Assembly (NCBI RefSeq): GCF_000981785.2
Contig: NZ_CP011304.1
Span: 330,001-362,000 of the forward strand
DNA: 32,000 bases
Reading direction: 5' to 3'
DNA from: Microcystis aeruginosa NIES-2549
GTDB taxonomy: Bacteria > Cyanobacteriota > Cyanobacteriia > Cyanobacteriales > Microcystaceae
This document shows, piece after piece, positions 5,887 through 27,206 of the stretch. Made by a program: the position numbers and the translations under genes. The notes beneath the pieces are model-generated. The model made no database searches. It was given only the letters and a program-made list of their open reading frames with translations, and was not told where the DNA came from. The first letter of the stretch is position 1. Each line of letters opens with the position of its first letter.

Positions 5887-5976
5887 GCACCCCCCTTATC
5901 AAGGGGGGATTAAGGGGGGATCAAGGGGGGATCAAGGGGGGATTAAGGGTAGGGTTGATTCATGAATCAACCCTAC
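5887..5976 (+). repeat. Palindromic element family member: CCCCCCTTATCAAGGGGGG hairpin, 4 x 11-bp GGGGGGATYAA tandem units, and the perfect 28-nt palindrome GTAGGGTTGATTCATGAATCAACCCTAC (5949-5976)
   Basis: Read directly from the sequence. The same element (TTAATT variant, opposite orientation, without the G6 expansion) recurs at 17851-17897, 18202-18248 and 18589-18616. Confidence 0.85.
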
Positions 5977-6041
5977 AAAGCACGACGTTTTGACAAATTT
6001 TCAGATATTTATTCCGATGAGAGAATGAAACGACCCTAGGA

Positions 6042-7335
6042 GTATCGGGGGAAGTACCCAGAATCCGAGCTGCTTCCCCTATCTCGACTAATCTCTGTGC
6101 CTTAACAAAACCCAGTTAAAAACCCCCAACCTAGCTAGGTTGGACGAGATTATTTAAGCCATAAACTACTTTAGCGGTGATAATCTTATCCTGATCGGTA
6201 AGTTCTTCTAACACCTCTTTTCCCTGGACTAAATAGCCAAAAACCGAATAACGACCATCCATGAGATTAAACCCCGGAGGAGTTAATTCATTATCGAATT
6301 TAAAGAAAAAGAATTGCGAGGAACCTCCGTTAGGATTAGTATCCGGACGCGCCAAGGCCAATGCACCAAAAGCGTTAAAAGGCAAGGCGAGACTGGGTAA
6401 GTAAATCCCTAATTCTTCGAGAGTGTTGCCATAAACTGGTTCTTCTTCCCCTTTAATCAAAATTTCTAAGGGAATAGAGCGATATTGTTTAGTTTTCGGG
6501 TCAATAAACCCCTCTTCTGCACCGACGGGATCCCCAGTTTGCACAACGAAATTATCTTCGCTGCGAATAAAGGGTAAACCGTCATAAAAACCCCGTTGGA
6601 CTAAATCCACAAAGTTACCCCCATTAATCGGAGCGCTGTAACCATCCACAACGATGGTTAAATCTCCTTTGGTGGTCTGCATCTCTATGGTGGCACGTCC
6701 TCGCAATTGCGGCAAGTTAGCGTATTCCGGGGGAACGTTAAAGGGAAAACCCACCACCATTAATTCTTCTAAAGCGGTGATATTATTGAGCAATTCTCGT
6801 CTGGTTGACCAAACTGCCTCTTTATCCTTCGCTTCTACGGCCGTATCGAGGGCTGCCACTCCCGTTTTGAGTTTTTCGATTAATTCCTCTCCTTGGCTTT
6901 TACTTGCTTCGGGAACACTATCTAAGATAGCCTTGCTTTTGGTAGAAAGGGCATAATTGGCATCCTTGACATCTTTTTTAATCGGACTCCAACGCTTGGC
7001 CCGCAGATGTTTGGCAATATCTTCGATCGATTGTTGCACTTGACGAATTGGTTTATTATCTATGGGTAAGGCATTGCGTAAAATAGCGGTGGGATCCGTT
7101 ACCGCATCACCCTGAGCAAGCACAGCTAAAGCAGGGGCAGTCCCCTTAACCGTGAACAGACTTAAGATTAAAAATAGTGCTAGGGCGATACTAGCACCGC
7201 TTTTTAAGAAAAATTTGCCCCATTCCCATAATCTTGTCTTTATTTTCATATTTTGGTCGGTTCCTCAATGGCCATACCTATCCAAAATACTTGTAGGCTT
7301 TTAGGGGAACCCTTGTCAATAGCTGAGAAAACCGA
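6042..7335. repeat. Left (intact) copy of a long direct repeat: cyclophilin gene plus 3' flank and promoter region
   Basis: Segments 6042-6292, 6470-6655 and 7275-7335 reappear collinearly at 21251-21746. I counted about 13 mismatches over about 500 aligned bp by eye. Confidence 0.9.
6131..7249 (-). CDS. Cyclophilin-type peptidyl-prolyl cis-trans isomerase with N-terminal TM/signal and helical domain (thylakoid-lumen TLP40/CYP38-like)
   Basis: 372 aa. The C-terminal cyclophilin core includes GGNFVDLVQRGFYDGLPFIRSEDNFVVQTGDP, GGSSQFFF and GRYSVFGYLVQG. Confidence 0.85.
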   Translation of the reverse strand: MKIKTRLWEWGKFFLKSGASIALALFLILSLFTVKGTAPALAVLAQGDAVTDPTAILRNALPIDNKPIRQVQQSIEDIAKHLRAKRWSPIKKDVKDANYALSTKSKAILDSVPEASKSQGEELIEKLKTGVAALDTAVEAKDKEAVWSTRRELLNNITALEELMVVGFPFNVPPEYANLPQLRGRATIEMQTTKGDLTIVVDGYSAPINGGNFVDLVQRGFYDGLPFIRSEDNFVVQTGDPVGAEEGFIDPKTKQYRSIPLEILIKGEEEPVYGNTLEELGIYLPSLALPFNAFGALALARPDTNPNGGSSQFFFFKFDNELTPPGFNLMDGRYSVFGYLVQGKEVLEELTDQDKIITAKVVYGLNNLVQPS

Positions 7336-7941
7336 GTCAGGGATCGACAAGGATTATCTATCCCTAGACAGACCACCGGAGCGGTCAGAGGTGAAAATAG
7401 GTGTAAGATCAAAAAATTCTCCGATAACTGTTGCCCTATCCCCCGCGTGCCTACCTAGGGGCCTTAGAATCTTCTAGGGAAGGGATGAATCAATGGACGA
7501 TAATCCAAGGGGTAGAAATGGGCAGACCCAGCACTATACAATTAAAGTTTCAGAAAAACAACCGGGCAATTACGGAAGTTTCTGTGGGTGGTGCATCAGT
7601 TCTAGTCTGCCAAGGCAAGATGATAATTGCCGATGGGGAAACAAAAAGCGATATAAAAAGGTCATTGTGAGAGTGGTGGCCGAAGTTGGTAAAAAGGAGA
7701 TGAACAATGTTAAAACATTAAGACCTGCAAGGATCAATCTCGGTTTTGTGGGATGGATGACAATAAATTTGACAGGGTATATCGAAAAATATAAAATTTC
7801 TAGAGGGATAACCAAGAAAAAATACGGCAGTTATCTTAATGGCGAGGCAGTAAGCAAAACGAGGTTATGCTTGGTTTTTCTGAGAAAATCTGTCAGAGTC
7901 AATAGAATATCTATAGTTAGAGCCTATTAAAATTAATCATT

Positions 7942-10900
7942 ATGCTCACCTCTTATCAGGAACTACAAAAAGAACTTAGTTTGTCGTTACAAGACTTAAA
8001 TAGTTTTGCCGACAAATTCCAGGAAAGTTATGATATTATAGTGTCTGCAAACGAAATCAATGAGAATCATGGTGTCGGGGTTCTTTTAAAGAGAATTTTC
8101 CCTGATACCAGTGGGATAGTCTCCTTACGAACCACTAATCTCTACGGAGGGGAGCATCATTTTGGCGTTCAGAATTTTTGCCTAGATGTGCGCGGTTGTT
8201 CCTACGCAGAAATATTAGTAAAAATTCAAAAATTATTTGTTTATACAAAACCAAGAAGAGTTTTAGTAATCCCATATTTTACCGAGGATTTTTATGTAGG
8301 GGCGGCGATTAAATCTCTCTTTCAAGTCCCAGTTTGTACCTACTTGATGGATGATCAGAACGTCTATGTCAGGGCTGTGGCCGATGGCATTGTTAAGCAA
8401 TTAATAGATAATAGTGATCTAGTTTTAGGTATTTCTAAGCCCCTGTGCCAAGCCTATAGTAAAAAATACGAAAGGAAAATTTGGTTTGTACCGCCTCTAG
8501 TAGAAAGTCATTTAATGCCACCAGAAATTACCGCCCCCGATTCTATGGCAAGAGGGATTTTGATCGGTAATATCTGGTCTCAGACTTGGCTAGAAAATCT
8601 CAGGCAATTATGTCGAGAATCCCAGATCAAATTAGATTGGTATGGCAATCCTAATCGTCAATGGTTGCAATTCCAAGAAGCAGAGTTAGAACAAGATGGT
8701 ATCTTCTTTAAAGGTTACTGCAGCCAAGATGCTCTCATCTACTACTTACGTCAAGCACCTTTTGCAATCGTTCCCACCGCCAGTTCTGAAAACGAGCAAG
8801 ATCGTCCCGAATTCGCCTGTTTGAGTTTGCCTTCCCGTATTCCCTTTATTACCGCCGTTGCTAATACTCCGATCATTATTGTTGGTCGTGAAGATAGTGC
8901 CGCCGCTCAGTTCGTCAAAGAATTCGACCTAGGAACTGTCTGTGATTATAAAGCTCAAAGCTTATTAACAGAAATAGAGAAACTGCGAATAGAAAGCAAT
9001 CAACTGCGGCTCCGTTATTCCAGTCAAAAATTAGCCAAAAGCTTAAAAGCCGATCATTTTGATGATTGGCTCTGGAGATCGTTAGAACAGGGAAAACCCA
9101 TCGATAATCGCTTTGAACAATTCGAGAAAAATAGCCTTAAGTGCAGTGTGATCGTCACCGCTAGTGAAGTCAATCAAAGTCACGGGACAGGAGCTTTGGT
9201 CAGAAGAATCTTTCCCGATGATAGCGAGATTATTTCCATCCGTTCCGATAATCACTATGGTGGTGAACAACAATTCGGGGTCTTAAGCTTCCACCTTGAC
9301 CATAAGAAAATGTCGCGACCGGCGATATTTCAATCAATTCTCCAAACTCTCGGACACCATCAAGTCCAAAAAGTTTTTTGTGTCCCCTACTATGCCAGCG
9401 ATATTCTGACATCGATCGCTATTAAGGAATTATTTAATGTTCCCCTTGCCACCTACATCATGGACGATCAGAATATCTGCGTTCAGGAGATATCTGATGC
9501 TTTGATGGGGGAGTTTTTAAGCAAATGTTCCGTTCGTTTTGCCACCCATCCCGAACTCCGCGACGCTTACGAGAATAAGTACGGCTACAAATTTTGGCTC
9601 CTACCGGCGATCGTTCCCCACCGTCTCATTAATAGTGAAGTTGCCGAAGTTTCTCCCCAACGCTGTCAAGAAAAATGGGGAGCTTTATTAGGGAGTATTT
9701 GGAGTCCCCAATGGTTCCAATCTCTTTTAGAGAGTATTCAAGGAGCAGGAATTAAACTAGATTGGTATGGCAATTCTAACTATTATTGGCTCAAAGAATC
9801 TGCCGCAGAATTAGAAAAATGGGGACTTTATAGCCAAGGACTTTATCCCGAAGAACAACTAGGACAACAACTACAAGCATATCCCTTTGTTATTGTTCCC
9901 ACGGGGACCATGGACGAAAGAGATGATCGGACAGAATTGTCTCGCCTTAGTTTACCCGGCCGGATTATTTTTAACCTTGCCACCGCTAACACCCCGGTAA
10001 TTCTTTTAGGCAGTAATAAAACCTCGGCGGCTAACTTTATTAATCGCTTTCAAATCGGGGTGGTTTGTGATTATACACCCGAAAGTTTGGCAGCAGCCGT
10101 GGACTACGTTCTTAACCCAGAAAATCAGCAAAGAATGCGAGAAAATGCCGTTAAAGTAGCGGCAAAATTCTCCGATCAAGATATTAACAATTGGGTGTGG
10201 CAGTCCCTAGAAAAAGAACAGGCGTCCGATGACAGATTTGAAGCGATTTTACCTCGATCGCCGATAGATGCCGTGCCTTTTATTGAGCCACCTGTCCCCA
10301 AAAAGATTTATAAAGATTATGTGCCAGTTTATCAAGTGATGCGTCGTCTGCAAGGCCAGGGTTATCAACCGGATTTCGTTATTGATGTCGGTGCCTCCCA
10401 CGGCATCTGGTCTTTTACCGTTAGTCAATTATTCCCTGAAGCTCGTTATCTTCTCATCGATCCCTTGACTTCCCAATATGAGCAGTTCGCTAGAGATTAT
10501 TTTATCGGCAATATCCCCGTGGCAGAATTGTTGGAAGTGGCGGTTTCCAATGAAGAAGGACGTTTAAATTTGCAAGTTTCTGCCGATTTTTACTGTAGTT
10601 CCCTGCTTAATCCCGCCGATTTGAGAGACTATCAGCCGTTGGAAGTGGTTGTCACTACTATTGATCGGATCGCCGCAGAGCAGCAGATTTCCGGGCGTGG
10701 CATTCTCAAAATAGATGTTCAATACGCCGAACATCTTGTCTTAGAAGGAGCGCAAGCATTTCTCCCCCAAGTAGATTTGATTATCGCCGAACTATCCGTG
10801 ATCCGATACGATGAGAAATCTCTAGTTATTAGTGAAATGATTGATTGGTTAGACCGGTTGGGATTTCGCTATTATGACGAAACGGGAGAATGGCGATCGC

Positions 10901-11004
10901 CAATAGATGGAACTCTCTTGCAAAAGGAAATCGTCTTTATCCGTCAGGATCTATTAGTTCCCGAAACTAACCGAGAAATTAATCAATTTCCCTCTAAACC
11001 TTGA
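7942..11004 (+). CDS. Tri-modular protein: two duplicated ~370-aa modules (possibly GT-B-like glycosyltransferase) plus a C-terminal FkbM-family (Methyltransf_21) methyltransferase
   Basis: Module 1 starts at aa 31 (SANEINENHGVGVLLKRIFPD...LSLPSRIPFITAVANTPIIIVG). Module 2 starts at aa 402 (TASEVNQSHGTGALVRRIFPD...LSLPGRIIFNLATANTPVILLG). The FkbM motifs are IDVGASHGIWS (aa ~814) and LKIDVQYAEHLVLEGA (aa ~923). Confidence 0.8.
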   Translation: MLTSYQELQKELSLSLQDLNSFADKFQESYDIIVSANEINENHGVGVLLKRIFPDTSGIVSLRTTNLYGGEHHFGVQNFCLDVRGCSYAEILVKIQKLFVYTKPRRVLVIPYFTEDFYVGAAIKSLFQVPVCTYLMDDQNVYVRAVADGIVKQLIDNSDLVLGISKPLCQAYSKKYERKIWFVPPLVESHLMPPEITAPDSMARGILIGNIWSQTWLENLRQLCRESQIKLDWYGNPNRQWLQFQEAELEQDGIFFKGYCSQDALIYYLRQAPFAIVPTASSENEQDRPEFACLSLPSRIPFITAVANTPIIIVGREDSAAAQFVKEFDLGTVCDYKAQSLLTEIEKLRIESNQLRLRYSSQKLAKSLKADHFDDWLWRSLEQGKPIDNRFEQFEKNSLKCSVIVTASEVNQSHGTGALVRRIFPDDSEIISIRSDNHYGGEQQFGVLSFHLDHKKMSRPAIFQSILQTLGHHQVQKVFCVPYYASDILTSIAIKELFNVPLATYIMDDQNICVQEISDALMGEFLSKCSVRFATHPELRDAYENKYGYKFWLLPAIVPHRLINSEVAEVSPQRCQEKWGALLGSIWSPQWFQSLLESIQGAGIKLDWYGNSNYYWLKESAAELEKWGLYSQGLYPEEQLGQQLQAYPFVIVPTGTMDERDDRTELSRLSLPGRIIFNLATANTPVILLGSNKTSAANFINRFQIGVVCDYTPESLAAAVDYVLNPENQQRMRENAVKVAAKFSDQDINNWVWQSLEKEQASDDRFEAILPRSPIDAVPFIEPPVPKKIYKDYVPVYQVMRRLQGQGYQPDFVIDVGASHGIWSFTVSQLFPEARYLLIDPLTSQYEQFARDYFIGNIPVAELLEVAVSNEEGRLNLQVSADFYCSSLLNPADLRDYQPLEVVVTTIDRIAAEQQISGRGILKIDVQYAEHLVLEGAQAFLPQVDLIIAELSVIRYDEKSLVISEMIDWLDRLGFRYYDETGEWRSPIDGTLLQKEIVFIRQDLLVPETNREINQFPSKP

Positions 11005-11028
11005 TCCTCTATACCTAAAATATACCCC

Positions 11029-12417
11029 ATGATGAAACAATTATTAGCCAAAAATAAAATAGTTCGGCGAGTTAAAGCAGTCAAAGATTTATTTTTAGAA
11101 AAACTTGATTTACTCAGTCATGTCCAACTTGAACAAATCCAAAAACTGGAAAAACTGGAGAAACTTAATCAGCTTGATCCCTTAGATTTTAAGGTTGAGC
11201 AACTCAATAACTCCACGGAGCAAATCCGACAAGAAAATGCAGAAACCAAGCGAAAGGCTGATTTATCACTGGAAAATCAAGCCTTTTTGCTCAAGTTTTC
11301 CGTCGATATAATTAAAAATATGCAAGTATTGACGGAAAAAATCCAGACAAATCACAGCCAATCTCAAAAACAGCACGAATCAACTCTGGACACTTTCCAA
11401 AAAATAGCCAGCGATGTGCGATTAGACTCCCAAAAAATAGCCAGCGATGTGCGACAAGACTCCCAAAAACATAGTGATTTAATTCTCGATTCTTTCCAGA
11501 GAATTTATGAAGCTTACCAACAGCAAAGCGATGCTATTTTTGGAACCGTACAGAAAATACAAGAAAATCTCCATCAAATCAGCGAAGATAACCGCCAAAT
11601 CTTTGAAGATATTCACTCTCAAAAATATAAAGTCATTACCGATCAACAATATTTCCAAGATCTAGACATCGAATTAATGACTTATTTATATTCCTATCTT
11701 CCCCATCGTCTAGCATTAGATATTGGTGCTAATCGTGGCGATGTTTCTAGTCGTCTCCTACAAGCTGGTTATCAAGTTTATGCCTTTGAACCTTTTCCTC
11801 CCGTCATCGATAAGCTGAAAAATCGCCTCGGTGATCATCCTAACTTTCGGCTTTTTCCCTTTGCTCTCGGTTCCGAAAATCAAACCCAAGAACTGAATAT
11901 AGCCACGGATGAAACCGCCGACAACACCTATCAAGATGCCAGCTTTTATAGCAGTCTAACCAAGCATTCTCTTTCCGAAGGTTTAGTATTTACCGATACT
12001 ATTCCCGTCACCGTTAAAACCCTAGCCAGCCTCCACGATGGCGAGGAATTACCTAAAGATATTGGTTTAGTTAAAATTGACACAGAAGGCTTTGATTTAG
12101 AAGTAATCAAAGGTATGGGCAACTATCGTTATCCCGTGGTAGTTGCGGAATTTTGGGATAAAAATTTCCCCTTTGGTCGTTCGGGAGCGATGAATCAATT
12201 ACCAGATTTAGTCAAGGCCATGAAAGAAAGAGATTATCATTGGCATCTAGTTATCTATCGTATTTGGGGAAGTTCCGACGTTAGTTATTACTGTAATTCT
12301 GCATATTCCCTCGATAATTCTTGGGGCAATGTTTTCTTTTTCAAAGATTATCAGGTCTTCCATCAAGCCTTACTTTGGTCTGCTTCTGTTATGCCAGCTA
12401 CCTACTTTTCTGCTTAG
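11029..12417 (+). CDS. N-terminal ~200-aa coiled-coil region fused to an FkbM-family methyltransferase
   Basis: The N-terminal half is rich in Q/K/E/L and heptad-like (LEQIQKLEKLEKLNQL, QKIASDVRLDSQKIASDVRQDSQK). The C-terminal half has LDIGANRGDVSS and VKIDTEGFDLEVIKGM. Confidence 0.8.
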   Translation: MMKQLLAKNKIVRRVKAVKDLFLEKLDLLSHVQLEQIQKLEKLEKLNQLDPLDFKVEQLNNSTEQIRQENAETKRKADLSLENQAFLLKFSVDIIKNMQVLTEKIQTNHSQSQKQHESTLDTFQKIASDVRLDSQKIASDVRQDSQKHSDLILDSFQRIYEAYQQQSDAIFGTVQKIQENLHQISEDNRQIFEDIHSQKYKVITDQQYFQDLDIELMTYLYSYLPHRLALDIGANRGDVSSRLLQAGYQVYAFEPFPPVIDKLKNRLGDHPNFRLFPFALGSENQTQELNIATDETADNTYQDASFYSSLTKHSLSEGLVFTDTIPVTVKTLASLHDGEELPKDIGLVKIDTEGFDLEVIKGMGNYRYPVVVAEFWDKNFPFGRSGAMNQLPDLVKAMKERDYHWHLVIYRIWGSSDVSYYCNSAYSLDNSWGNVFFFKDYQVFHQALLWSASVMPATYFSA

Positions 12418-12465
12418 AAAATTAGAAGTCAATTATTTTTCACAGAATAACTAACTAGGTGAGTA

Positions 12466-13971
12466 ATGATTATGAAAAAAAATATATCCTTAAGCAGTGA
12501 AATTTTGATTCTCATCGGTTTGGGAATTGCTTTTTTGCTAGTAGGCATATTCTTTGGACCTAGATTACAACCCGTGTGGATAGATGAAGTAGCATTGACA
12601 GAACCAGCAGCCAATCTAGCTTTATACGACAGTTTTACCTCGGCTGCTTGGTGGCATCAAAATGCTCAAGAGTTCCATGTTGGCGTTTCTTTTCTTTATA
12701 CATTTTTGCTGGCTTTATGGATAAAAGTTTTGGGATTTAGTATTGAAAAAGTTAGGCTTTTTAATTATGTGTTAATGCTTCTTAGCATCACTGTAATCTG
12801 GTTATTCATCAAGAACTTGCCTTTAATTAAGTTTTCTTGGCTAAGAATCATCCTAGTGGTTAGTTGTCTTTTGCCAGCAGGAATTACCTTTATTTATACA
12901 TCGGGAAGGTACGACACTTCCTGCATTTTCTTATCAGCACTGGTTTTGGGAGCTTTTTTAATAAAAGATGCTAAAATCCGATGGCTTACTATGACAATTA
13001 TTGGATTTTTCTTTCCCCTTTCCGGATTGTCAGCAGTGGCCTTTGCCATAATTTTTGGCGTTATCCTACTCCTTTTCAACTTTCAGCGATTTTTTCGGGA
13101 ATTTGTCGCTCTAATTGGGGGATTTATTTTAGGAATGTTATTTCTTTATGCACTTTACTCAACCAATGGTGTTTGGGATGATTTTGTTGGTATGACTTTG
13201 GGTCAGATTGCTGACAATGCCAACCGCAACAGAAGTGTCATTGATATAATATTTTCCAAAGTGAGCAAACTTTTTGACCAGAAAGATTATGTGTGTCGTG
13301 GCTGCTCGGGAGATCTGTCTTTTCCCCCACTGTCAGTACTGCTGATGATCTTGATATTTTATGAACTATTGACCAAATCTTTCCAGTGGCGTTCTCCTTC
13401 CTTTTTTGCTTTGATCACCGTTATTACCATACCAACTACTATGTGTTTTCTGGGGAAATATCCACTTTATTATAGTTGGATGTCGATGTTTCCCTTGATA
13501 ATTTGTATTTGCTGGAGTTTTAATAACATTTTAGAAAAAAATACTGGCAAAATTCAGACGACAATTATTAGTATAGCTTTTTTGGTTTTATTGTTTTATG
13601 CCAACTTACTAGGACTACCTTACCGAGCGCAAATTACCTTACAACAATGGGAAAATAATGACTATACTAAAGTACAAAACTTTCTTGACAACAAAATCAA
13701 TCATGAGGAGCATATTTATGCTGATTTTCAAGCATTCTACGCCCTCAAGTCTCGGGGTAAACGAGTTTATTTCCCCCTTTATAATGGGCAGATGACACCA
13801 GAGGATAGGGATAATCTTTCATTAATTGTCATTGATCCTAGGGCCAGTGCTAGAGCGCCCTGGAATCCCGGATTAGCAGAAATTGTTGGCGACTCACTCC
13901 CCCAGTGGTACGATACAGGAGAACAGTTAGATACAGGCACTTATGGGATGAAATTGTACCGAAAAAGATAA
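12466..13971 (+). CDS. Polytopic membrane protein, GT-C-like glycosyltransferase / oligosaccharyl-transferase candidate
   Basis: 501 aa with about 11-13 hydrophobic segments and an acidic WIDEV motif directly after TM1, as in GT-C enzymes. The C-terminal ~110 aa are soluble. The family assignment is not secure. Confidence 0.6.
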   Translation: MIMKKNISLSSEILILIGLGIAFLLVGIFFGPRLQPVWIDEVALTEPAANLALYDSFTSAAWWHQNAQEFHVGVSFLYTFLLALWIKVLGFSIEKVRLFNYVLMLLSITVIWLFIKNLPLIKFSWLRIILVVSCLLPAGITFIYTSGRYDTSCIFLSALVLGAFLIKDAKIRWLTMTIIGFFFPLSGLSAVAFAIIFGVILLLFNFQRFFREFVALIGGFILGMLFLYALYSTNGVWDDFVGMTLGQIADNANRNRSVIDIIFSKVSKLFDQKDYVCRGCSGDLSFPPLSVLLMILIFYELLTKSFQWRSPSFFALITVITIPTTMCFLGKYPLYYSWMSMFPLIICICWSFNNILEKNTGKIQTTIISIAFLVLLFYANLLGLPYRAQITLQQWENNDYTKVQNFLDNKINHEEHIYADFQAFYALKSRGKRVYFPLYNGQMTPEDRDNLSLIVIDPRASARAPWNPGLAEIVGDSLPQWYDTGEQLDTGTYGMKLYRKR

Positions 13972-13992
13972 ACCCGAAGTAATTCCAAGGAT

Positions 13993-14739
13993 ATGAACTC
14001 TGAAAAACTGCAATTAAGGTCTGATTATCAAAAAATGCTTGATGACTTAGATCCTCAAGTCCTCCAGTTGGATCGACAGGTATTTAAACGGCTACAAAAC
14101 CTAGGTTACACCCCAAGGGTGATCTTTGATGTGGGTGCCTCTAATAGTGGCTGGTCCTACTATATCAAACAGGTGCTGCAGGAAGCTGAATTTTATCTCT
14201 TTGAACCTCTTATCGAATACAGCAGCGACTATCGGGAATTAATCTCAGAAATTCTGCGAGTCTATCCCTCCTTTCATCTGTATAAATACGCCCTAGGTGA
14301 AACCTGCGGCGAGGTGACGATGAATGTTTCCACGGACGTGGTGAGCAGTAGCCTCTTGCAAACCGGTGATGAGAGTCAGCCCACCACCCCCATCTCGGTG
14401 CAAATGTTAACAATTGATGACGCAATTGCCCGACTTGGTTTACCCCATCCCCAAGTGATCAAAATTGATACCCAAGGCTCGGAGTTGTCTATACTTAAAG
14501 GAGCCGTCAAAACCCTAGCTAAAGTCGATGTTCTCTTTCTCGAATGCTGGCTCTATCGGGGCTATGGCCAAAAAACTCCCCTCTTAACCGAAATCGCCGA
14601 TTGGTTATTATCCTTTAATTTTCGGCTTTGGGATGTGGCCGATGCCTATCGCGATCAAGGGGGAGTGCTAACCACATTAGATTGTATTTTTGTAAATACT
14701 CAAGCCAGTATTACCCCGATTTGGTACTATGAGAACTAG
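13993..14739 (+). CDS. Stand-alone FkbM-family methyltransferase
   Basis: 248 aa with FDVGASNSGWSYY and IKIDTQGSELSILKGA motifs. Confidence 0.85.
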   Translation: MNSEKLQLRSDYQKMLDDLDPQVLQLDRQVFKRLQNLGYTPRVIFDVGASNSGWSYYIKQVLQEAEFYLFEPLIEYSSDYRELISEILRVYPSFHLYKYALGETCGEVTMNVSTDVVSSSLLQTGDESQPTTPISVQMLTIDDAIARLGLPHPQVIKIDTQGSELSILKGAVKTLAKVDVLFLECWLYRGYGQKTPLLTEIADWLLSFNFRLWDVADAYRDQGGVLTTLDCIFVNTQASITPIWYYEN

Positions 14740-15014
14740 AGTGGCTTGACTTTCCTAACCCTTCTAGTCTTTGCCGTGCCAGGGAAAAGAAGAACAGTCT
14801 ATTTTCTTCCCAGATATCCGATAGACCAAGTACCAAGTTGGAGAGCAAGGGACAGGATTAAACAGTCCTTAGATCACTATCTCGGTCAGGGAAAATTAAG
14901 CCATAGTTAAGAGGGCTTTTCCTAACCCCAGTTTTTCCTGCGGGAAAAACTTAGGGTCAAGCCTCCATTCAGACTATCCAAGGAATAACTTTTTTATGTC
15001 CACCGGATTTCTAC

Positions 15015-15043
15015 TTGCCCAAACCAGAAAAATTTGTTATACT
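15015..15043 (+). promoter_or_regulatory. Putative sigma70-type promoter TTGCCC-N17-TATACT for the surface-protein gene
   Basis: The hexamers and 17-nt spacer were read directly. They lie ~80 nt upstream of ATG 15125, which is preceded by the GAGGAG Shine-Dalgarno at 15106-15111. Confidence 0.4.
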
Positions 15044-15124
15044 TTTATCCGAGTAGCCGTTAGGGTCCCCCGACCTCTGGACGGACTCAAATTATCATAA
15101 CCGTGAGGAGTTGAGATTAAAAAC

Positions 15125-17665
15125 ATGGCAATCAGTACAGAAGTATACGCTTCGTTAAATATTCTTTATGCTTCCCAAGCTCCGTCAGCCTCTGACATTA
15201 GCTTGTGGCAGACTGACCCTAGCTTGACATCCCTGACTTGGGAAGAAACGGTTCTTGTTTTCGCCAATTCGGCCGCAGCCCAACAAACCTATCCCCTCTT
15301 GGCTGCCCCCGGAGCCGCCACCGATGCCACCAGACGGCAGTACGTTCTAGAGGTTTTTAACAATGCCTACGGCCTAGAAGAAGCCGATTTAAATGTCGAC
15401 GAGATTAACTACTGGGTTGAATGGCTCAGTCTCACCAATCCCGATGGTACGCCCGCCGACAGCGATGGCAACGGCATCCCCAATATTTTAGATTTTCCCA
15501 TCGTCCTTAACCAGTACCAGCCCGCTGCCATCCAACAGGCCCTGCTCAACCGGGCAGAAGTAGCCCTCGATTTCGCTGCCCAGTTCCAACTGGAAGGTAT
15601 TTCTAACTTTACCGAGGAAGACTACAACACCTCTTGGAGCATCCTTGAAACCGTGACCGCAGAAGAGGCTAGTGTTACTGCGGCTAAGGCCGCTAACCTA
15701 GTGGCCGCCGCCGAAGCTGGTGGGGCTGGCAATAGCGAAGCCTTGACCGCTGGTCAGGACGATTTCACCGCTAACCTTTTCCTCGCCGCCCCCGTCAACA
15801 ACTTCGGGCAGGTCAACCAAACCCTGAACAGTGGTGATAAACTAACCGGTTCCGGCACTAACCCCACTTTAACCGTCCTCTGGACTGGTGGTGCTGAAAG
15901 CGTCCTACCCATCTTCACCGATGTGGAGACCCTTAACGTTACTAACACGGGTCCTGTCGGTAATCTTTTGACCATTCTGGGAGCCAGTGTCACTGGTCTC
16001 AAGAATGTCAATGTTGCTGATAGTGTTTCTAGTATTGTTGGCGGTTTTATTTTCAGTAGCGATTTCTCATTGACCAACACTCAAACCGCAGTGGAAACGG
16101 TTTCTCTGAGCCGCACTAATGCTGATACCATCATCACCATCGCCAATGCCGCTCTTGCCGGTGACGAAGATGCGGTGACACTCACCTTGAATCAAGCTGG
16201 TACCGTCGCTGATAATGCTCAACTAACTCTTAATCCAGTATCTGGCACCGATGGCTACGAGCAACTAGCGATCGCGACCGAAGGGTTGGCCAGCACCGTT
16301 GATCTGACTGCCGTCGGTATTGAGGAAGTAACCATCACTGGGGATCAAGACCTAACCCTCACCAATGCCCTGGCCAACACCGCTACCAAGCTAGATGCCT
16401 CCGAGTTTGAGGGTGATTTATCCGTGATATCTGGTACCGGAACCATTGACTTTACAGGTGGTCTCGGTGATGATACTTTCACGGTCAACGGCTTTACCAG
16501 TGCGGATATCGTCGATGGTGGTGAAGGGACTAACACCCTAGAAGTGACCGCCGCTAATGCCGAAGGGATTACGGCCGAGAATGACAATATTACCAACATC
16601 CAAACCTTAGCCTTAATCAGTCCTGGTACTGCTGGCGCTACCCTACGGGCTGACCTTATCGGTGATGAAATCACTACGGTGGAGCTAGGAGGGGGGACTT
16701 TTGGTGCTTATACTATTCGCTTCAACGCGGGCAATAACACCTTAACCACTTTAGGCAACACTGGTGCTTTAGACGTTCAAGCGGAAGGCACTGCCACTAC
16801 CGATGCCCTCACCCTGAATATCGATGGAGCAGAGGCAAACAATCTCACTTTGACCTCTTTGACGTTAAACAACGTCGATCGACCGAGCGAGCAACTTACC
16901 ATCAACTCCACCGATGCTCCCGCTGGCCACACAATTGGGGCTGTCACCCTGCCTGATACCAACGGCGTAAATAACGCGATTACCATCACTGGTAACTCCA
17001 CTTTGACTATTGGTGGTGCAGTGACGGCGGACGAAATCGACGCTTCTGGCATGACCGATGGTGCGGCACTGGTGATGAATGGCAATTCTGCCATTGCCAT
17101 CTCCATCACTGGTTCGGAAGGCGATGACCGATTAGTTGGTAGTATTTTGCGAGACAGTATTAGCGGTGGGGGTGGTAATAATAATATTACTGGTGGTCTC
17201 GGTACAGACCAACTCACCGGTGGCGGCGGTATCGACACATTTGTCCAGGGGACTGCTGACAGTGCGGCTCGATCTGCGATTAGTGGTGCGGCGGCAGATA
17301 CCTTTACTGCCAATGGAACTATTACCTTTGCACCAGTTGGTACCTCTGCTGTCCCCAACGTCGATATCATCCGAGGATTCGTGGGCGGTGCTAATGGTGA
17401 CATACTGGACTTGAATTTTGCCGCGGCAGCAGTTACGGGTATTGGCGTAGCGAATAACAATCTGGCGGCTAACACCAACTACTTCTTGTCTGGTAACTTT
17501 ACCCTTGGCACGGGCGTATTTACTATTACCTCCGATGGCGGTGGTGCCGACACCTTGATCATTCAAGGTAATGGTGGTGCTAACTTCTTTGGGGGCGCTA
17601 ACGCTTCCTCGATCGTGTTACTTGGCCTTAACAGTAACAACTTAGTGGCTGCTAACATCATCTAG
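15125..17665 (+). CDS. Secreted surface / S-layer-like protein with RTX (GGxGxD) calcium-binding repeats; probable type I secretion substrate
   Basis: 846 aa. I see no Cys and no N-terminal signal peptide, and the composition is T/A/G/N/L-rich. The N-terminal region has a DUF4214-like stretch (YVLEVFNNAYGLEEADLNVDEINYWVEWL). RTX-like runs are FTGGLGDDTFTV and GSEGDDRLVGS...SGGGGNNNITGGLGTDQLTGGGGIDTF (nt ~17111-17245). Confidence 0.8.
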   Translation: MAISTEVYASLNILYASQAPSASDISLWQTDPSLTSLTWEETVLVFANSAAAQQTYPLLAAPGAATDATRRQYVLEVFNNAYGLEEADLNVDEINYWVEWLSLTNPDGTPADSDGNGIPNILDFPIVLNQYQPAAIQQALLNRAEVALDFAAQFQLEGISNFTEEDYNTSWSILETVTAEEASVTAAKAANLVAAAEAGGAGNSEALTAGQDDFTANLFLAAPVNNFGQVNQTLNSGDKLTGSGTNPTLTVLWTGGAESVLPIFTDVETLNVTNTGPVGNLLTILGASVTGLKNVNVADSVSSIVGGFIFSSDFSLTNTQTAVETVSLSRTNADTIITIANAALAGDEDAVTLTLNQAGTVADNAQLTLNPVSGTDGYEQLAIATEGLASTVDLTAVGIEEVTITGDQDLTLTNALANTATKLDASEFEGDLSVISGTGTIDFTGGLGDDTFTVNGFTSADIVDGGEGTNTLEVTAANAEGITAENDNITNIQTLALISPGTAGATLRADLIGDEITTVELGGGTFGAYTIRFNAGNNTLTTLGNTGALDVQAEGTATTDALTLNIDGAEANNLTLTSLTLNNVDRPSEQLTINSTDAPAGHTIGAVTLPDTNGVNNAITITGNSTLTIGGAVTADEIDASGMTDGAALVMNGNSAIAISITGSEGDDRLVGSILRDSISGGGGNNNITGGLGTDQLTGGGGIDTFVQGTADSAARSAISGAAADTFTANGTITFAPVGTSAVPNVDIIRGFVGGANGDILDLNFAAAAVTGIGVANNNLAANTNYFLSGNFTLGTGVFTITSDGGGADTLIIQGNGGANFFGGANASSIVLLGLNSNNLVAANII

Positions 17666-17697
17666 GTCTGAAGTGATTGACTTTAGATCTTGAATAG

Positions 17698-17728
17698 AAC
17701 CCAATCCCTTTATCGGGATTGGGTTTTT
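17698..17728 (+). terminator. Rho-independent terminator of the surface-protein gene
   Basis: The 11-bp perfect stem AACCCAATCCC / GGGATTGGGTT has a 6-nt loop and runs into a T5 tract, 33 nt after the stop codon. Confidence 0.75.
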
Positions 17729-17901
17729 AGTTTTTTCTAGTTCCAGGGTTCTACCTTTGCGTCCTGTGGGTAACGCACAGAAAACGGGTTTCTCCGAGAA
17801 ACCCGTTTTCTACCTTTGCCCCTACTTTTTCAGCTTTTCTGGGGGAAGTAGTAGGGTTAATTCATGAATTAACCCTACCTTTGATAAGGGGGGTGATAGC
17901 T

Positions 17902-18165
17902 TCAATTTCCTCGCGACTTTTCTGGGGGAAATCGCTTTAAGAGTTGCTGCTTGGAATACTGTAGGAGTAAAGGGGTAAATTCTTCCGGGGACAATTGTAA
18001 AATCCGGCTGATAATAGCTTGCAGTGGTGGGTCTAACTCACCGAAGCGGACTCGGAGCAGGTTTTCCACCACCAGACGTTCCCCCTCTTGCAGACCCCGT
18101 TCTTCTCCTTCGGCCAGTGCCTCTTGATAGACTCTCGTTTGTTTTAAATCACTTAGTCCAAACAT
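17902..18165 (-). pseudogene. DUF4351 fragment (C-terminal domain of an Rpn-family recombination-promoting nuclease / putative transposase), copy 1
   Basis: 87 aa: MFGLSDLKQTRVYQEALAEGEERG...LLRVRFGELDPPL...LSPEEF. In frame upstream of the ATG the DNA still reads KSREEIEA, the linker typical of full-length family members. This indicates a truncated relic. Confidence 0.6.
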
Positions 18166-18252
18166 AGCTTCAATTTCCTCGCGACTTTTCTGGGGGAAGT
18201 AGTAGGGTTAATTCATGAATTAACCCTACCCTTGATAAGGGGGGTGATAGCT

Positions 18253-18552
18253 TCAATTTCCTTGCGACTTTTCTGGGGGAAATCGCTTTAAGAGTTCCTG
18301 CTTGGAACACTGTAGGAGTAAAGGAGTAAATTCTTCTGGGGACAATTGTAAAATCCGGCTGATAATAGCTTGCAGTGGTGGGTCTAACTCACCAAAGCGG
18401 ACTCGGAGCAGGTTTTCCACCACCAGACGTTCCCCCTCTTGCAGACCCCGTTCTAAACCCCGTTCTAGACCCCGTTCTAGACCCCGTTCTTCTCCTTCGG
18501 CCAGTGCCTCTTGATAGACTCTCGTTTGTTTTAAATCACTTAGTCCAAACAT
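18253..18552 (-). pseudogene. DUF4351 fragment, copy 2, with a 36-bp in-frame expansion (ERGL)x3
   Basis: 99 aa, near-identical to copy 1 apart from three extra 12-bp ACCCCGTTCTAR units (array 18445-18492). Confidence 0.6.
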
Positions 18553-18837
18553 AGCTTCAATTTCCTCGCGACTTTTCTGGGGGAAGTAGTAGGGTTAATT
18601 CATGAATTAACCCTACCGGCTCTTCTAGGTTCTGTGTGATAAGTTTAACTTACAATATGATCGATCTTTGTGTCCTCTGTGTCTGGAGTGGTTCCCTCCA
18701 CTCCCTCGCCAGCAGGACTGTATCTCAGAATACATTTTACCCACCAAATCCAAAAGAGCCAATCTAGGGGACATGGCTCTTTTCCTGTATAATCAAGTCT
18801 TAATTTTATGACTTGCCATTATATTTGAGGAAAATCT

Positions 18838-20349
18838 ATGAATTGGACAGAGGGATATGTATTGGAAGTTAACTACACTAGCGGCTTTTACGGCGAGTTA
18901 AGTCCCCTAAAATTAGGTTTAGCCACTCTGATTAAATCCATTCAACCCCCCGATTCTAGCCAAGAATTTACCTATTGTGAATTGGCCTGTGGTCAGGGTT
19001 TTACCACGAATATTTTAGCGGCAACCTATCCCCACGCCCAATTTTATGCCAATGATTTCAATCCTAGTCATATCGCCACGGCTAGAGATTTAGCGGCCAA
19101 GGCGGGGATGAAGAATATTCTTTTCTTTGATGATAGTTTTGAGGAATTTTTAGAGCGAGATTTACCTCAATTTGACTTCATCAGTCTGCACGGAATTTAT
19201 AGCTGGATTAGTGCCATAAATCGCCAAGCAATAGTTAATTTTATTCGCCGCAATCTCAAGGTGGGGGGATTAGTTTATATCTCCTATAATGCCCTTCCGG
19301 GTTGGTCAGCAGCGATGCCGATGCAGGCTTTAATGTTGCGTCATGGTCAACACAGTTCCGAACCAATTTTAACCCGCATTGAACAGGCTCTTAATTTTAC
19401 AGGAGAATTATTAGAAGCTAATGCTAGTTATTTTGCCCAAAATCCAATTTTAAAAAGTCGTTACGAGCGCCTAAAGGAACAAAATCGTTATTATTTAGCT
19501 CACGAGTATTTCAATCAGGAATGGAATTCTTTTTACTTCGATGAAGTGGCGAAAGAATTAGAGGATGCTAAACTTAAATATGTGGGTTCTGCCCATATTA
19601 ATGACCATATTGATACAGTCAATCTCTCCCCAGTTGCCCAAGAAAAATTAGCCAAAATCAGCGACCCAATCTATCGGGAAGTGGTGCGAGATTTCTTTCT
19701 TAATAGCCAATTCCGTCGTGATATTTTTAGTCGAGGCTCCTTAGGTTTAACCCTCCAAGAACAGGTTAAACAACTAGAAGAAACTCGGTTTGCCATGATT
19801 GTTAATCCCGCAATTATCAAGTTCGAGCATCAGTTTCCCGTGGGAGAAGTTAAGTTACAGGAGACAGTTTATCAGCCAATTTGTGAAGTTTTGGCGGAAT
19901 CTCCCCAAACTTTACTGCAACTAAAAAATCACCCCAAAACCTCAAATATTAACTTAAATGGTCTTTCCCAAGCTCTGATGATTTTAACTGGTATTGGCTA
20001 TATTCATCCTGCTGTGGATGAGCAAACTTGCCAACAACGGAAACCATCTACTGATGCTTTTAATAATGCAGTGAAAGCGAAAGCAGTCTATAGTGAGGAA
20101 TTAAGCTTTTTAGCTTCTCCTTTGATTGGGACTGGAGTAGTGGTCAATCGTTTAGAACAATTATTCCTCTTGGCTAAATCCTATAACCAAGATGCAGTAC
20201 AATTTGTTTGGCAAAATTTGGCAAGTCAAGGCAAAAAAGTGGTTAAAGATGGGAAACCTTTGGAAACAGAGGAGGAAAATATTACGGTTCTTCCGAACTT
20301 ACACTGTGGAAAATTCCCCAAGCTCCCTCTCTGTCCAGCAATGCTCTAA
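18838..20349 (+). CDS. Class I SAM-dependent methyltransferase with C-terminal methyltransferase regulatory domain (PF10119-like); C-terminus rewritten by a MITE insertion
   Basis: 503 aa with WTEGYVLEVNYTSGFYGELSP at the start, the SAM motif ELACGQGF, and HGIYSWIS. The last 22 codons are MITE-derived. Confidence 0.8.
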   Translation: MNWTEGYVLEVNYTSGFYGELSPLKLGLATLIKSIQPPDSSQEFTYCELACGQGFTTNILAATYPHAQFYANDFNPSHIATARDLAAKAGMKNILFFDDSFEEFLERDLPQFDFISLHGIYSWISAINRQAIVNFIRRNLKVGGLVYISYNALPGWSAAMPMQALMLRHGQHSSEPILTRIEQALNFTGELLEANASYFAQNPILKSRYERLKEQNRYYLAHEYFNQEWNSFYFDEVAKELEDAKLKYVGSAHINDHIDTVNLSPVAQEKLAKISDPIYREVVRDFFLNSQFRRDIFSRGSLGLTLQEQVKQLEETRFAMIVNPAIIKFEHQFPVGEVKLQETVYQPICEVLAESPQTLLQLKNHPKTSNINLNGLSQALMILTGIGYIHPAVDEQTCQQRKPSTDAFNNAVKAKAVYSEELSFLASPLIGTGVVVNRLEQLFLLAKSYNQDAVQFVWQNLASQGKKVVKDGKPLETEEENITVLPNLHCGKFPKLPLCPAML

Positions 20350-20448
20350 AGTTGATAAATATCAATCTAACAAAAACTCAAAGCCCTATTATACAAGCTT
20401 TACAAGTATGAGTTGTTGATAGTTTGACATGACAGGTTCGGTAGAGCC
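20286..20448. mobile_element. 163-bp MITE with imperfect 15-bp terminal inverted repeats and an 8-bp target-site duplication AATATTAC
   Basis: The left end is GGTTCTTCCGAACTT and the reverse complement of the right end is GGCTCTACCGAACCT (12/15 match). The TSD copies are at 20278-20285 and 20449-20456. Removing the element plus one TSD restores an in-frame ORF ending at TAA 20527-20529. Confidence 0.8.
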
Positions 20449-20560
20449 AATATTACTCATCTGAAAACAGTGTACGAGGAGTTTAGTCAAGGACGTTTAC
20501 TAACATTGCAAAAACTGGGTATTGAGTAAATACTAAGTAAGTAATCTCATTGTAATCGGC

Positions 20561-21160
20561 TACTTAGATAGGTGGTGCGTTACGACGGATTGTTACTTTC
20601 AAGTCAAAGCAGTAATTTTTGCCGTTACGTTTTACTACTTAGTGGTGCGTTACGACGGTTTGTTACTTTCAAGTCAAAGCAGTAATTTTTGCCGTTACGT
20701 TTTACTACTTAGTGGTGCGTTACGACGGTTTGTTACTTTCAAGTCAAAGCAGTAATTTTTGCCGTTACGTTTTACTACTTAGTGGTGCGTTACGACGGTT
20801 TGTTACTTTCAAGTCAAAGCAGTAATTTTTGCCGTTACGTTTTACTACTTAGTGGTGCGTTACGACGGTTTGTTACTTTCAAGTCAAAGCAGTAATTTTT
20901 GCCGTTACGTTTTACTACTTAGTGGTGCGTTACGACGGATTGTTACTTTCAAGTCAAAGCAGTAATTTTTGCCGTTACGTTTTACTACTTAGTGGTGCGT
21001 TACGACGGTTTGTTACTTTCAAGTCAAAGCAGTAATTTTTGCCGTCTAACTACGTTTTACTACTTAGTTGATGATAGGTGGTGCGTTACGACGGATTGTT
21101 ACTTTCAAGTCAAAGCAGTAATTTTTGCCGTCTAACGCACCCTACGTTTTGCTACTCTAA
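20561..21160 (+). repeat. 70-bp tandem array, 8 units (units 2-5 identical; unit 7 is 86 bp; unit 8 carries a complete 14-bp closing stem)
   Basis: The unit is GGTGCGTTACGACGG(T/A)TTGTTACTTTCAAGTCAAAGCAGTAATTTTTGCCGTTACGTTTTACTACTTAGT. Unit starts are 20574, 20644, 20714, 20784, 20854, 20924, 20994 and 21080. Confidence 0.95.
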
Positions 21161-21250
21161 GCTGAAAAGGTCATGGACAGAGTAACATCTACTAACTGCC
21201 TTGTCTTCACTAGCGGGGAATATTTGCCTCGACAATTGCCACTTTCTGGG

Positions 21251-21746
21251 GTATCGGGGGAAGTCCCCACAATCTGAGCTGCTTCCCCTATCTTGACTAA
21301 TCTCTGTGCCTTAACAAAACCTAGTTAAAAACCCCCACCCTAGCTAGGTTGGACGAGATTATTTAAGCCATAAACCACTTTAGCGGTGATAATCTTATCC
21401 TGATCGGTAAGTTCTTCTAACACCTCTTTTCCCTGGACTAAATAGCCAACAACCGAATAACGACCATCCATGAGATTAAACCCCGGAGGAGTTAATTCAT
21501 TGGGAATAGAGCGATATTGCTTAGTTTTCGGGTCAATAAACCCCTCTTCTGCACCGACGGGATCCCCAGTTTGCACAAAGAAATTATCTTCGCTGCGAAT
21601 GAAGGGTAAACCGTCATAAAAACCCCGTTGGACTAAATCCACAAAGTTACCCCCATTAATCGGAGCGCTGTAACCATCCACAACGATACCTATCTAAAAT
21701 ACTTGTAGGCTTTTAGGGGAACCCTTGTCAATAGGTGAGAAAACCG
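21251..21746. repeat. Right (degenerate) copy of the cyclophilin-locus direct repeat
   Basis: It is collinear with 6042-7335 but has two internal deletions, equivalent to 6293-6469 (177 bp) and 6656-7274 (619 bp). Confidence 0.9.
21340..21681 (-). pseudogene. Cyclophilin PPIase remnant lacking the N-terminal ~200 codons, the start codon and 59 internal core codons
   Basis: The 113-aa frame is identical or nearly so to the C-terminal part of the 6131-7249 product. The segment LEILIKG...GGSSQFFFFKFD is missing. The apparent start is an internal GTG (Val in the intact copy) with no Shine-Dalgarno. Confidence 0.85.
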
Positions 21747-21760
21747 ATCAAAGCCATTAT

Positions 21761-21832
21761 CAGTTATCAGTTATCAGTTATCAGTTATCAGTTATCAGAT
21801 GTGAGTTATCAGTTCACCCATTACTGTTTACT
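21761..21832. repeat. Left arm of a 72-bp inverted repeat: (CAGTTAT)x5 CAGATGTGAG... composite
   Basis: Its reverse complement is present at 27071-27142 with 3 mismatches. Confidence 0.85.
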
Positions 21833-21841
21833 GAAAAAAGG

Positions 21842-21921
21842 CTCCCCAATTCCCCAATTCCCCACTTCCCCAATTCCCCACCTCCCCACTTCCCCACCTC
21901 CCCAATTCCCCATCTCCCCAA
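21842..21921 (+). repeat. STRR-like octamer array (YTCCCCAN)x10, followed by (ATAATTT)x3 at 21925-21945
   Basis: I counted the array unit by unit. It lies 54 nt upstream of the RuBisCO-like protein start codon. Confidence 0.95.
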
Positions 21922-21974
21922 TTCATAATTTATAATTTATAATTCCCACTCCCTTTTTCACCTTTTGACTTCTT

Positions 21975-23135
21975 ATGACTATTATCGTCGATTATCGCTT
22001 TCCGCCCGCTATTAATGCCGAAAAACAGGCAAAAACGATCGCTATCGGTCAAACCGCCGGCACTTGGAGCGAGCGCCACAGTCATCGTCAAGAGCAGCTG
22101 CAACAACACCTAGCGGAAGTGGTGGGGATCAGGGAGGAAGCCGACGGTTATAAGGTGGCTAGGGTGCGTTTTCCCCAGATAAACGTTGAAAATGACATCG
22201 CCAGTCTTTTAACCATGATTTTCGGCAAATATTCCATGGCTGGAGCAGGAAAAGTGGTGGGGGTGTATCTCCCCGAAAGCTACGGCACAAAAGCCAAGCT
22301 GGGAATCACAGGAATTAGGCAACGTTTGGGGGTTTATGATCGACCTCTAGTCATGGCAATTTTTAAACCCGCTTTAGGACTATCGGCCCAAGATCACGCC
22401 GATATCCTGCGAGAAGTGGCTTTTGCTGGCTTAGACGTGATTAAAGATGATGAAATCATGGCGGATCTTCCCGTGGCTCCCACCCACGAGCGCCTAGATT
22501 GTTGTCGCCGAGTTTTGGAGGAAGTGCGGCAGCAAACCGGTAGAAATGTTCTCTATGCGGTCAATGTCACTGGAAAAGCGGACGAATTGCAGAGAAAAGC
22601 CCGTTTATTAGTGAAACATGGGGCTAATGCCCTATTATTAAACGTTCTTACCTACGGTTTTTCCGTTTTAGAAGCTTTAGCCAGTGATCCGGCGATCGAT
22701 GTTCCTATTTTCGCCCATCCTGCCTTTGCCGGAGCGATGTGTGCCGGTAGCGATACGGGATTAGCCTATTCTGTGGTTTTGGGGACGATGATGGCCCACG
22801 CAGGAGCCGATGCGGTGCTATATCCCGCCGCCTACGGTAGTTTACCCTTCGATCCGCAGGAGGAGGGCAAAATTCGCGATATTTTGCGCGATAGAAACGT
22901 TTTTCCGGTTCCCTCGGCCGGCATTCGTCCAGGTATTGTTCCCCAGGTCCTTGGGGATTACGGACGTAATGTTATCCTCAATGCGGGAACTGGAATTATG
23001 GACCACCCATCGGGACCGGCCAGTGGTGTGAGGGCTTTTTTTGAAGCTTTAGCCAGAATAGAAGCGGGTGAGTCCTTTGATCCGGCCAATTTGCCAGAAG
23101 GAGCCTTAAAACAGGCAATTCTAGAGTGGGGTTAA
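21975..23135 (+). CDS. mtnW: Form IV RuBisCO-like protein; probable 2,3-diketo-5-methylthiopentyl-1-phosphate enolase (methionine salvage)
   Basis: 386 aa. It has FKPALGLS where RuBisCO has KPKLGLS (the second Lys is replaced by Ala), it retains VIKDDE (carbamylated Lys and metal ligands), and it lacks the large-subunit N-terminal extension. An RLP of this type is documented in Microcystis. Confidence 0.8.
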   Translation: MTIIVDYRFPPAINAEKQAKTIAIGQTAGTWSERHSHRQEQLQQHLAEVVGIREEADGYKVARVRFPQINVENDIASLLTMIFGKYSMAGAGKVVGVYLPESYGTKAKLGITGIRQRLGVYDRPLVMAIFKPALGLSAQDHADILREVAFAGLDVIKDDEIMADLPVAPTHERLDCCRRVLEEVRQQTGRNVLYAVNVTGKADELQRKARLLVKHGANALLLNVLTYGFSVLEALASDPAIDVPIFAHPAFAGAMCAGSDTGLAYSVVLGTMMAHAGADAVLYPAAYGSLPFDPQEEGKIRDILRDRNVFPVPSAGIRPGIVPQVLGDYGRNVILNAGTGIMDHPSGPASGVRAFFEALARIEAGESFDPANLPEGALKQAILEWG

Positions 23136-26920: not shown

Positions 26921-27070
26921 TTATCGGTTATCAACTGCGTTAGCGAGTAACGCCATCATAATTGCTCGGTGACAATCTTTCTTTTATTAGTTTATCGCAG
27001 CCCCGACCTCTAGAGACATAGACCAGTCCTAGACTGTGGGGTGTAGGGTGTATTTTCAGTGAACAGTGAA

Positions 27071-27142
27071 CAGTAAACAGTAATCAGTGAACTGAAAACT
27101 CACATCTGATAACTGATAACTGATAACTGATAACTGATAACT
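27071..27142. repeat. Right arm of the 72-bp inverted repeat (reverse complement of 21761-21832), preceded by CAGTGAA-type heptamers
   Basis: Direct comparison gives CAGTAAACAGTAATCAGTGAACTGAAAACTCACATCTG(ATAACTG)x5. Confidence 0.85.
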
Positions 27143-27206
27143 GACTCCTGGATTTGACAGGCTGTCTGTTGATCGATCGAGAAAGTTTCCTCAGAATTGG
27201 GAGTAT

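Follow-up and report, generated by a model that had tools for sequence, protein, structure and literature searches.

A tandem array of palindromic 70-bp repeats in Microcystis aeruginosa NIES-2549 resembles a copy-number-variable minisatellite

Described repeat arrays of comparable form

Bacterial minisatellites, the VNTR loci used in MLVA typing, are the closest described kind to the array analyzed here, which lies in a 32,000-nt stretch of the M. aeruginosa NIES-2549 chromosome (the window). One bacterial example is reported from within a MITE of Porphyromonas gingivalis (PMC4596501). As in minisatellite/VNTR loci, whose units measure at least 10 bp, the array consisted of non-coding head-to-tail repeats of tens of bp, and its copy number was polymorphic among strains at one locus. 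The interior copies were homogenized and the edges divergent, and the surroundings were transposon-rich intergenic DNA, which is also shared with minisatellites. Unlike in usual minisatellites, the unit is a long imperfect palindrome. An 11-bp deletion marks most copies, and the full hairpin is therefore restricted to the last one. We regard the array as an ordinary bacterial minisatellite of known type.

A second candidate for comparison is the small RNA NsiR1, which is ~60 nt long and encoded in 12 tandem copies upstream of hetF. Each copy has a DIF1 promoter that depends on HetR, and the arrangement is conserved in at least 19 heterocystous species (PMC9045159, PMC6596454). Both arrays are cyanobacterial and comprise direct tandem repeats of ~60–70 bp with identical central and divergent peripheral copies (PMC9045159). 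However, this pattern is common to any array under unequal exchange. The Microcystis array differed from NsiR1 in lacking the DIF1 motif, hetF, a credible terminator and conservation beyond some Microcystis strains, and it was flanked by a methyltransferase gene and a cyclophilin remnant instead of hetF.

The REP/BIME elements of proteobacteria are the third kind. They are also intergenic hairpins on the transcribed strand at gene 3′ ends, sometimes clustered and flanked by CTAC/GTAG. Palindromes of this kind can act as barriers at mRNA 3′ ends. In contrast to REPs, which are dispersed in hundreds of copies and linked to RAYT genes, the element of the array was found at one locus only.

Organization of the array and its flanking genes

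The features of the locus are listed below in window coordinates.

18838–20349, + strand: gene of a SAM-dependent methyltransferase with a PF10119 regulatory domain; its 3′ flank contains the array
20286–20448, no strand assigned: 163-bp MITE flanked by an 8-bp target duplication (AATATTAC), its terminal inverted repeats imperfect, inside the 3′ end of the methyltransferase gene
20530–20571, + strand: leader between the ancestral methyltransferase stop codon (TAA, 20527–20529) and unit 1; its 3′ end is the spacer motif CTACTTAG
20572–20991, + strand: units 1–6, 70 bp each (starts at 20572, 20642, 20712, 20782, 20852 and 20922), the short form, in which the 3′ closing arm is shorter by 11 nt (CTAACGCACCC)
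20992–21077, + strand: unit 7, 86 bp, with 5 nt (CTAAC) of the closing arm retained and 11 additional nt in the spacer (long variant CTTAGTTGATGATAG)
21078–21155, + strand: unit 8, full-length, with the 5′ arm GGTGCGTTACGACGG at 21080–21094 and the 3′ arm CCGTCTAACGCACC at 21128–21141, followed by CTACGTTTTGCTAC
21152–21160, no strand assigned: junction at which the array abuts sequence found ~4.2 kb further on in allele A strains
21340–21681, − strand: truncated remnant of a cyclophilin gene in convergent orientation to the methyltransferase gene; the gene of which it is a degraded duplicate lies at 6131–7249

Eight head-to-tail units thus spanned 20572–21155: units 1–6 measured 70 bp each and unit 7 measured 86 bp, and unit 8, the terminal one, had the full closing stem of 14 bp and one bulged C. 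Tandem Repeats Finder placed the repeat at 20572–21068 (period 70, 7.0 copies, 98% matches, score 935), and the array reached 21131 at the double and triple periods. Two unit signatures, the 15-mer GGTGCGTTACGACGG and the 23-mer TTACTTTCAAGTCAAAGCAGTAA, occurred eight times each, in the array only, where 0.31 and 0.00 occurrences were expected by chance. The eight near-identical units named in the original prediction were therefore real, although the repeat proper begins at 20572 rather than at 20561 and ends at the junction near 21155. The differences it had described between the units were also all seen: units 2–5 were identical, units 1 and 6 differed from them solely at unit position 18, where A replaces T (GGATTG vs. 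GGTTTG), unit 7 carried the insertions, and unit 8 had the full arm. Identical interior units between differing edge units constitute a pattern of concerted evolution.

No ORF of 60 aa or longer crossed the array, and stop codons were confirmed in all six frames, as had been predicted. A CRISPR array was rejected: neighboring units directly adjoin one another and the sequence joining them is repeated too, leaving no unique spacers. The leader was considered as a degenerate partial unit and likewise rejected, its likeness being confined to the 8-mer CTACTTAG, and 106 of 1000 shuffles scored equally well.

The position of the array in the 3′ flank of the methyltransferase gene means that any read-through transcript would carry it on the + strand. 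Owing to the insertion of the 163-bp MITE, the methyltransferase ORF now ends within that MITE and encodes 503 aa, compared with 506 aa elsewhere; an exact look-up of the 503-aa protein returned no identical record. On the other side of the array, comparison of 21248–21747 with 6039–7335 identified the cyclophilin remnant as a degraded direct duplicate of an intact CYP38-like cyclophilin gene. These direct repeats bracket an island of ~14 kb with glycosyltransferase and FkbM-methyltransferase genes (7336–21247), and recombination could therefore gain or lose the island. The array marks a recombination- and transposon-prone edge of this variable glycan-modification island.

Distribution and variation among Microcystis strains

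Further strains for comparison were retrieved with the RuBisCO-like protein encoded downstream of the array as the anchor. This protein (21975–23135, 386 aa) resembles the RuBisCO large subunit, has no small subunit beside it, and did not differ among at least 19 contigs of separate Microcystis assemblies, which made it a convenient anchor for the variable region. The comparison set comprised the window and 13 further array-bearing Microcystis loci, plus two loci without the element (L015 and L016), giving 16 loci with the same flanks. The copy numbers of the array-bearing loci were as follows.

1 copy: L023
2 copies: L001 (81-bp units), L004, L005 and L006
3 copies: L002 and L020
4 copies: L003, L021, L022 and L024
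5 copies: L018
8 copies: the window and L019 (M. aeruginosa NIES-2481)

Copy-number variation between strains, which the original prediction had suggested looking for, was thus found, with 0, 1, 2, 3, 4, 5 or 8 copies over the 16 loci. The single-copy version that it had also sought was found in L023 at the same locus, and BLAST of the unit against 262 kb of retrieved DNA gave no match outside the arrays. In every array-bearing strain the element was positioned ~45 nt past the stop codon of the methyltransferase gene with the PF10119 domain, and the last unit was full-length in all arrays. Since both units of L001 measured 81 bp and had a complete hairpin, the 70-bp unit corresponds to the 81-bp unit minus CTAACGCACCC. 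Expansion from a single hairpin element had been proposed, and the strains with one or two full 81-bp units at the same site agreed with it. The long spacer variant CTTAGTTGATGATAG of unit 7 was also present in L002, L003, L005, L018, L021 and L024.

L015 and L016 lacked the element at the same junction between the methyltransferase gene and a gene for a 410-aa protein; there the two genes were only ~40 bp apart, and the 410-aa protein was 85–87% identical to that of L001. The element was also absent from L007–L014, a group of orthologues with 59% identity, where an ordinary G+C hairpin with a T-run stood in its place. Therefore, the element is dispensable, lineage-restricted and confined to a single locus. 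An exact 36-mer of the unit was found at two loci among the species-representative genomes, both in Microcystis, and a 21-mer was found in four metagenome contigs, all at the same locus. The 21-mer was absent from viral contigs, and the unit had no match in phage or plasmid collections. In none of these exact-match genome, metagenome and viral searches, nor in the phage and plasmid collections, was the unit found in a genus other than Microcystis.

CP012375.1 is the genome of M. aeruginosa NIES-2481, which belongs to group G (PMC5865083), and its flanks were 99.5% identical to those of the window. The array itself was 100% identical over 610 bp despite this flank divergence of 0.5%, and was therefore not hypermutable on that time scale. 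Some constraint is possible on an 8-copy array that was stable in two strains.

Two alleles of the locus were distinguished. In allele A the order was methyltransferase, array, 410-aa gene, DUF4214/FkbM methyltransferase gene, GT4 glycosyltransferase gene and cyclophilin; the three genes between array and cyclophilin make up the ~4.2 kb mentioned above. In allele B the array was followed directly by cyclophilin, and the junction TTTTGCTAC|TCTAAGCTGAAAAGG was identical in the window, L018, L021, L023 and L024.

MITE-like insertions of 186 bp (L002 and L020), 232 bp (L018, L021 and L022) and 107 bp (L018) were present in or beside the arrays. Those within arrays (L018 7270–8300, L021 7610–8330 and L002 6073–6258) were mostly located at the spacer motif CTAC(TTAG). 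From these sequences, the spacer downstream of the methyltransferase gene appears prone to transposon insertion. In L018, a unit and its 107-bp insert were tandemly duplicated as a 188-bp composite (81 + 107). This indicated that amplification copies whatever lies between the repeats, a behavior that unequal recombination or slippage would produce. With 0–8 copies and the MITE-like insertions, the locus is a clean length-polymorphic marker for Microcystis genotyping.

The 52 units of the window and the other strains fell into 15 distinct 55-nt cores. The 5′ arm and loop CAAGTCAAAG were almost invariant across all 52, which may reflect recency or else function. Three substitutions were found in the outer stem (CCGT to CTGT in short units; AACGCACC to AATGCACC and GACGG to GGCGG in full units), and all three give G·U pairs on the + strand. 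The chance of three out of three is ~1 in 8, so this is a faint hint that a + strand RNA hairpin might be tolerated or preferred.

Origin of the array and alternative explanations

It is probable that the array is a copy-number-variable minisatellite derived from one palindromic spacer element, and that any transcription of it would be passive, as part of the methyltransferase mRNA. Among the possibilities raised originally, a minisatellite at an island edge had been a fallback, and it proved the best fit to the evidence. The founder was probably an 81-bp unit, made of a 62-nt imperfect palindrome, in which a 14-bp outer stem rich in G+C encloses an interior rich in A+T, and a 19-nt spacer ending in CTACTTAG. 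The element occupies one intergenic site past the methyltransferase gene, in the variable glycan-modification island of some Microcystis strains. The 70-bp form presumably arose when one copy dropped 11 nt of its 3′ arm, and the copy number may then have been shifted by unequal recombination or replication slippage between the direct copies. Such exchange would have homogenized the interior, with the edge units staying distinct and the last one always full-length.

Judging from the orientation of the array relative to the methyltransferase gene and from the 40-bp junction left empty in element-free strains, the genes of those strains may form an operon, so the array, if transcribed, is most likely carried along passively on the + strand. 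The array would accordingly form a 3′ or intercistronic part of the methyltransferase mRNA, and its units would not be independent genes. A 3′-end barrier or weak terminator could then be provided by the full hairpin of the last unit, which has a predicted energy of about −27 to −29 kcal/mol and precedes CUACGUUUU.

Unit 8 was the only clearly structured unit, with a predicted fold of −28.7 kcal/mol (z −3.0) on the + strand. The 70-nt unit folded at −16.9 kcal/mol (z −1.5) on the + strand and at −11.0 kcal/mol (z −0.4) on the − strand, a difference that adds to the faint hint of + strand pairing. The outer stem was paired in 100% of cells across the eight distinct full-unit variants. A covariation test on these eight gave no compensatory change and equal values for shuffled and observed alignments, and was uninformative because the full units are 98% identical.

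In another explanation, the units would be cotranscribed cis-acting RNA hairpins that act as a copy-number-dependent terminator, attenuator or mRNA-stabilizing barrier, in the manner of REP/BIME, and tune read-through to the downstream glycan genes in allele A. There, the methyltransferase gene and the 410-aa gene share one orientation, and the last hairpin, complete in every case, ends ~35 nt short of the ATG of the latter. The sequence after this hairpin is CUACGUUUU. Pairing of the strong outer stem is kept in all variants, its changes being G·U-compatible on the + strand. The adjoining genes are of the surface-glycan type, a class often under phase variation. However, without the closing arm each additional interior 70-bp unit contributes no more than a weak hairpin, and the largest arrays (5 and 8 units) occurred in allele B strains, in which the downstream genes are missing. 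Both observations weaken a copy-number attenuator. Related contigs do without the element, MITE-like insertions within the arrays are tolerated, and a canonical terminator was absent. Taken together, cis-acting hairpins are unlikely. An effect of the array on read-through into glycan genes would make it a rare cyanobacterial case of regulation by the number of long repeat units, but nothing found here requires one.

Very unlikely is the stronger proposal that the array is a transcribed, heritable expression dial, in which the unit number would set downstream transcription or mRNA survival, or that its + strand units are processed to abundant small hairpin RNAs. Were the dial real, it would provide copy-number-based surface-glycan variation in Microcystis populations, e.g., under phage pressure.

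The main claim of the original prediction was an NsiR1-like array of small-RNA genes. Each unit would carry a sigma70-type promoter (TTGTTA-N17-TAATTT), and the transcript would end at the inner hairpin and U5 of the next unit, so that one small RNA of ~65–70 nt would be encoded many times over. The spacing of the promoter-like motifs and the T5 run were present as described, and we take TAATTT to fit the loose cyanobacterial −10 form TAnnnT. The stability of eight copies between two strains and the identical central and divergent edge copies, likewise seen in NsiR1 arrays (PMC9045159), also count in its favor. On the other side, read from the sequence, the promoter matches the consensus at only 7 of 12 positions, whereas the threshold of the promoter scan is 9 of 12, and the scan for consensus promoters and terminators gave no promoter-like and no terminator-like site within the array. 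The inner stem-loop, the proposed terminator, was predicted at −0.8 kcal/mol, and the frame of the proposed transcript folded no better than shuffles (z −0.63). The variation between strains is also adverse. The variant AAAGCCGCAATTTTT, present in 9 of 52 units and in 5 strains, has two fewer pairs in the inner stem and reads CAATTT instead of TAATTT at the proposed −10, and the −35 takes four forms between units (TTGTTA, TTTTTA, TGGTTA and TTATTA). Related contigs lack the element, and none of the other genera searched has it.

Known RNA families gave the same answer. No Rfam family reached its gathering threshold in the window, a comparison bound to the families modeled there (Rfam 15 may not include NsiR1), and a permissive search (E ≤ 10) over 20300–21400 and the full-length units of L001 gave nothing relevant. 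The DIF1 motif TCCGGA occurred zero times in the array, and the scan for tRNA and tmRNA genes was negative. A literature search returned no usable TSS or small-RNA map of this locus in Microcystis and no earlier description of the repeat. The small-RNA array was thus contradicted on every sequence-level test available, and we consider it highly improbable. In a young repeat, phased hairpins, T-runs and promoter-like strings all go back to a single accident and do not count as eight separate lines of evidence, and the case is a caution in that strain comparison dissolves an apparent per-unit gene signal.

The permissive Rfam matches (S15 leader, snR13, MIR4387 and wcaG) were all far under their cut-offs and at noise level. 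The wcaG RNA motif (RF01761) was followed further, for the strings UGGUGCG and UCAAGUCAAAG and for the polysaccharide-gene setting. It has in common with the array UGGUGCG, the loop UC(A/C)AGUCAAAG and a neighborhood of polysaccharide genes. Its matches at 20617–20700 and 20757–20840 scored 14.3 bits against a cut-off of 42 bits (E 9.6), with the first hairpin mispaired, and the full-length units of L001 gave no match. The likeness was judged to be chance and dropped.

The array could also be what is left of a small mobile palindromic element that inserted at this site and multiplied there; a MITE, a REP-like element and a derivative of an IS200/IS605 end are the candidates. REP hairpins have an adjacent GTAG/CTAC tetranucleotide, and CTAC lies directly 3′ of the hairpin here. 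The 14-bp inverted arms, the occurrence of both filled and empty sites, at least four other MITE-like insertions in the same spacer, and IS605 OrfB genes nearby in L018 and L020 point in the same direction. However, no dispersed copies were found in the exact-match and 262-kb BLAST searches, and no second locus turned up in any collection searched. There was no clear target-site duplication around a single unit, and neither a Y1-transposase nor another linked transposase was found in the window. Such an origin is considered extremely improbable. An iteron-like array of protein-binding DNA sites, suggested by the regular 70-bp phasing, the nearly invariant 5′ arm and loop, and CGTTACG occurring twice in each short unit, is hardly credible at a chromosomal site between convergent genes, with no adjoining replication, partition or regulator gene, with 0–8 copies and with large insertions tolerated.

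Other repeats were present in the window. Short intergenic tandem arrays with periods of 7–11 nt were located at 5898–5949, 21757–21814, 21843–21924 and 27057–27144; their repeats (TTATCAG, TCCCCAAT, CAGTGAA/AACTGAT and ATCAAGGGGGG) belong to the short tandemly repeated type common in cyanobacteria. Upstream of the methyltransferase gene, two short ORFs (17902–18165 and 18253–18552) had weak DUF4351 matches, and internal repeats were seen at ~17.8–18.6 kb. Both ORFs resemble pieces of a 291-aa DUF2887-type gene, which is intact at this position in L018, L020 and L021.
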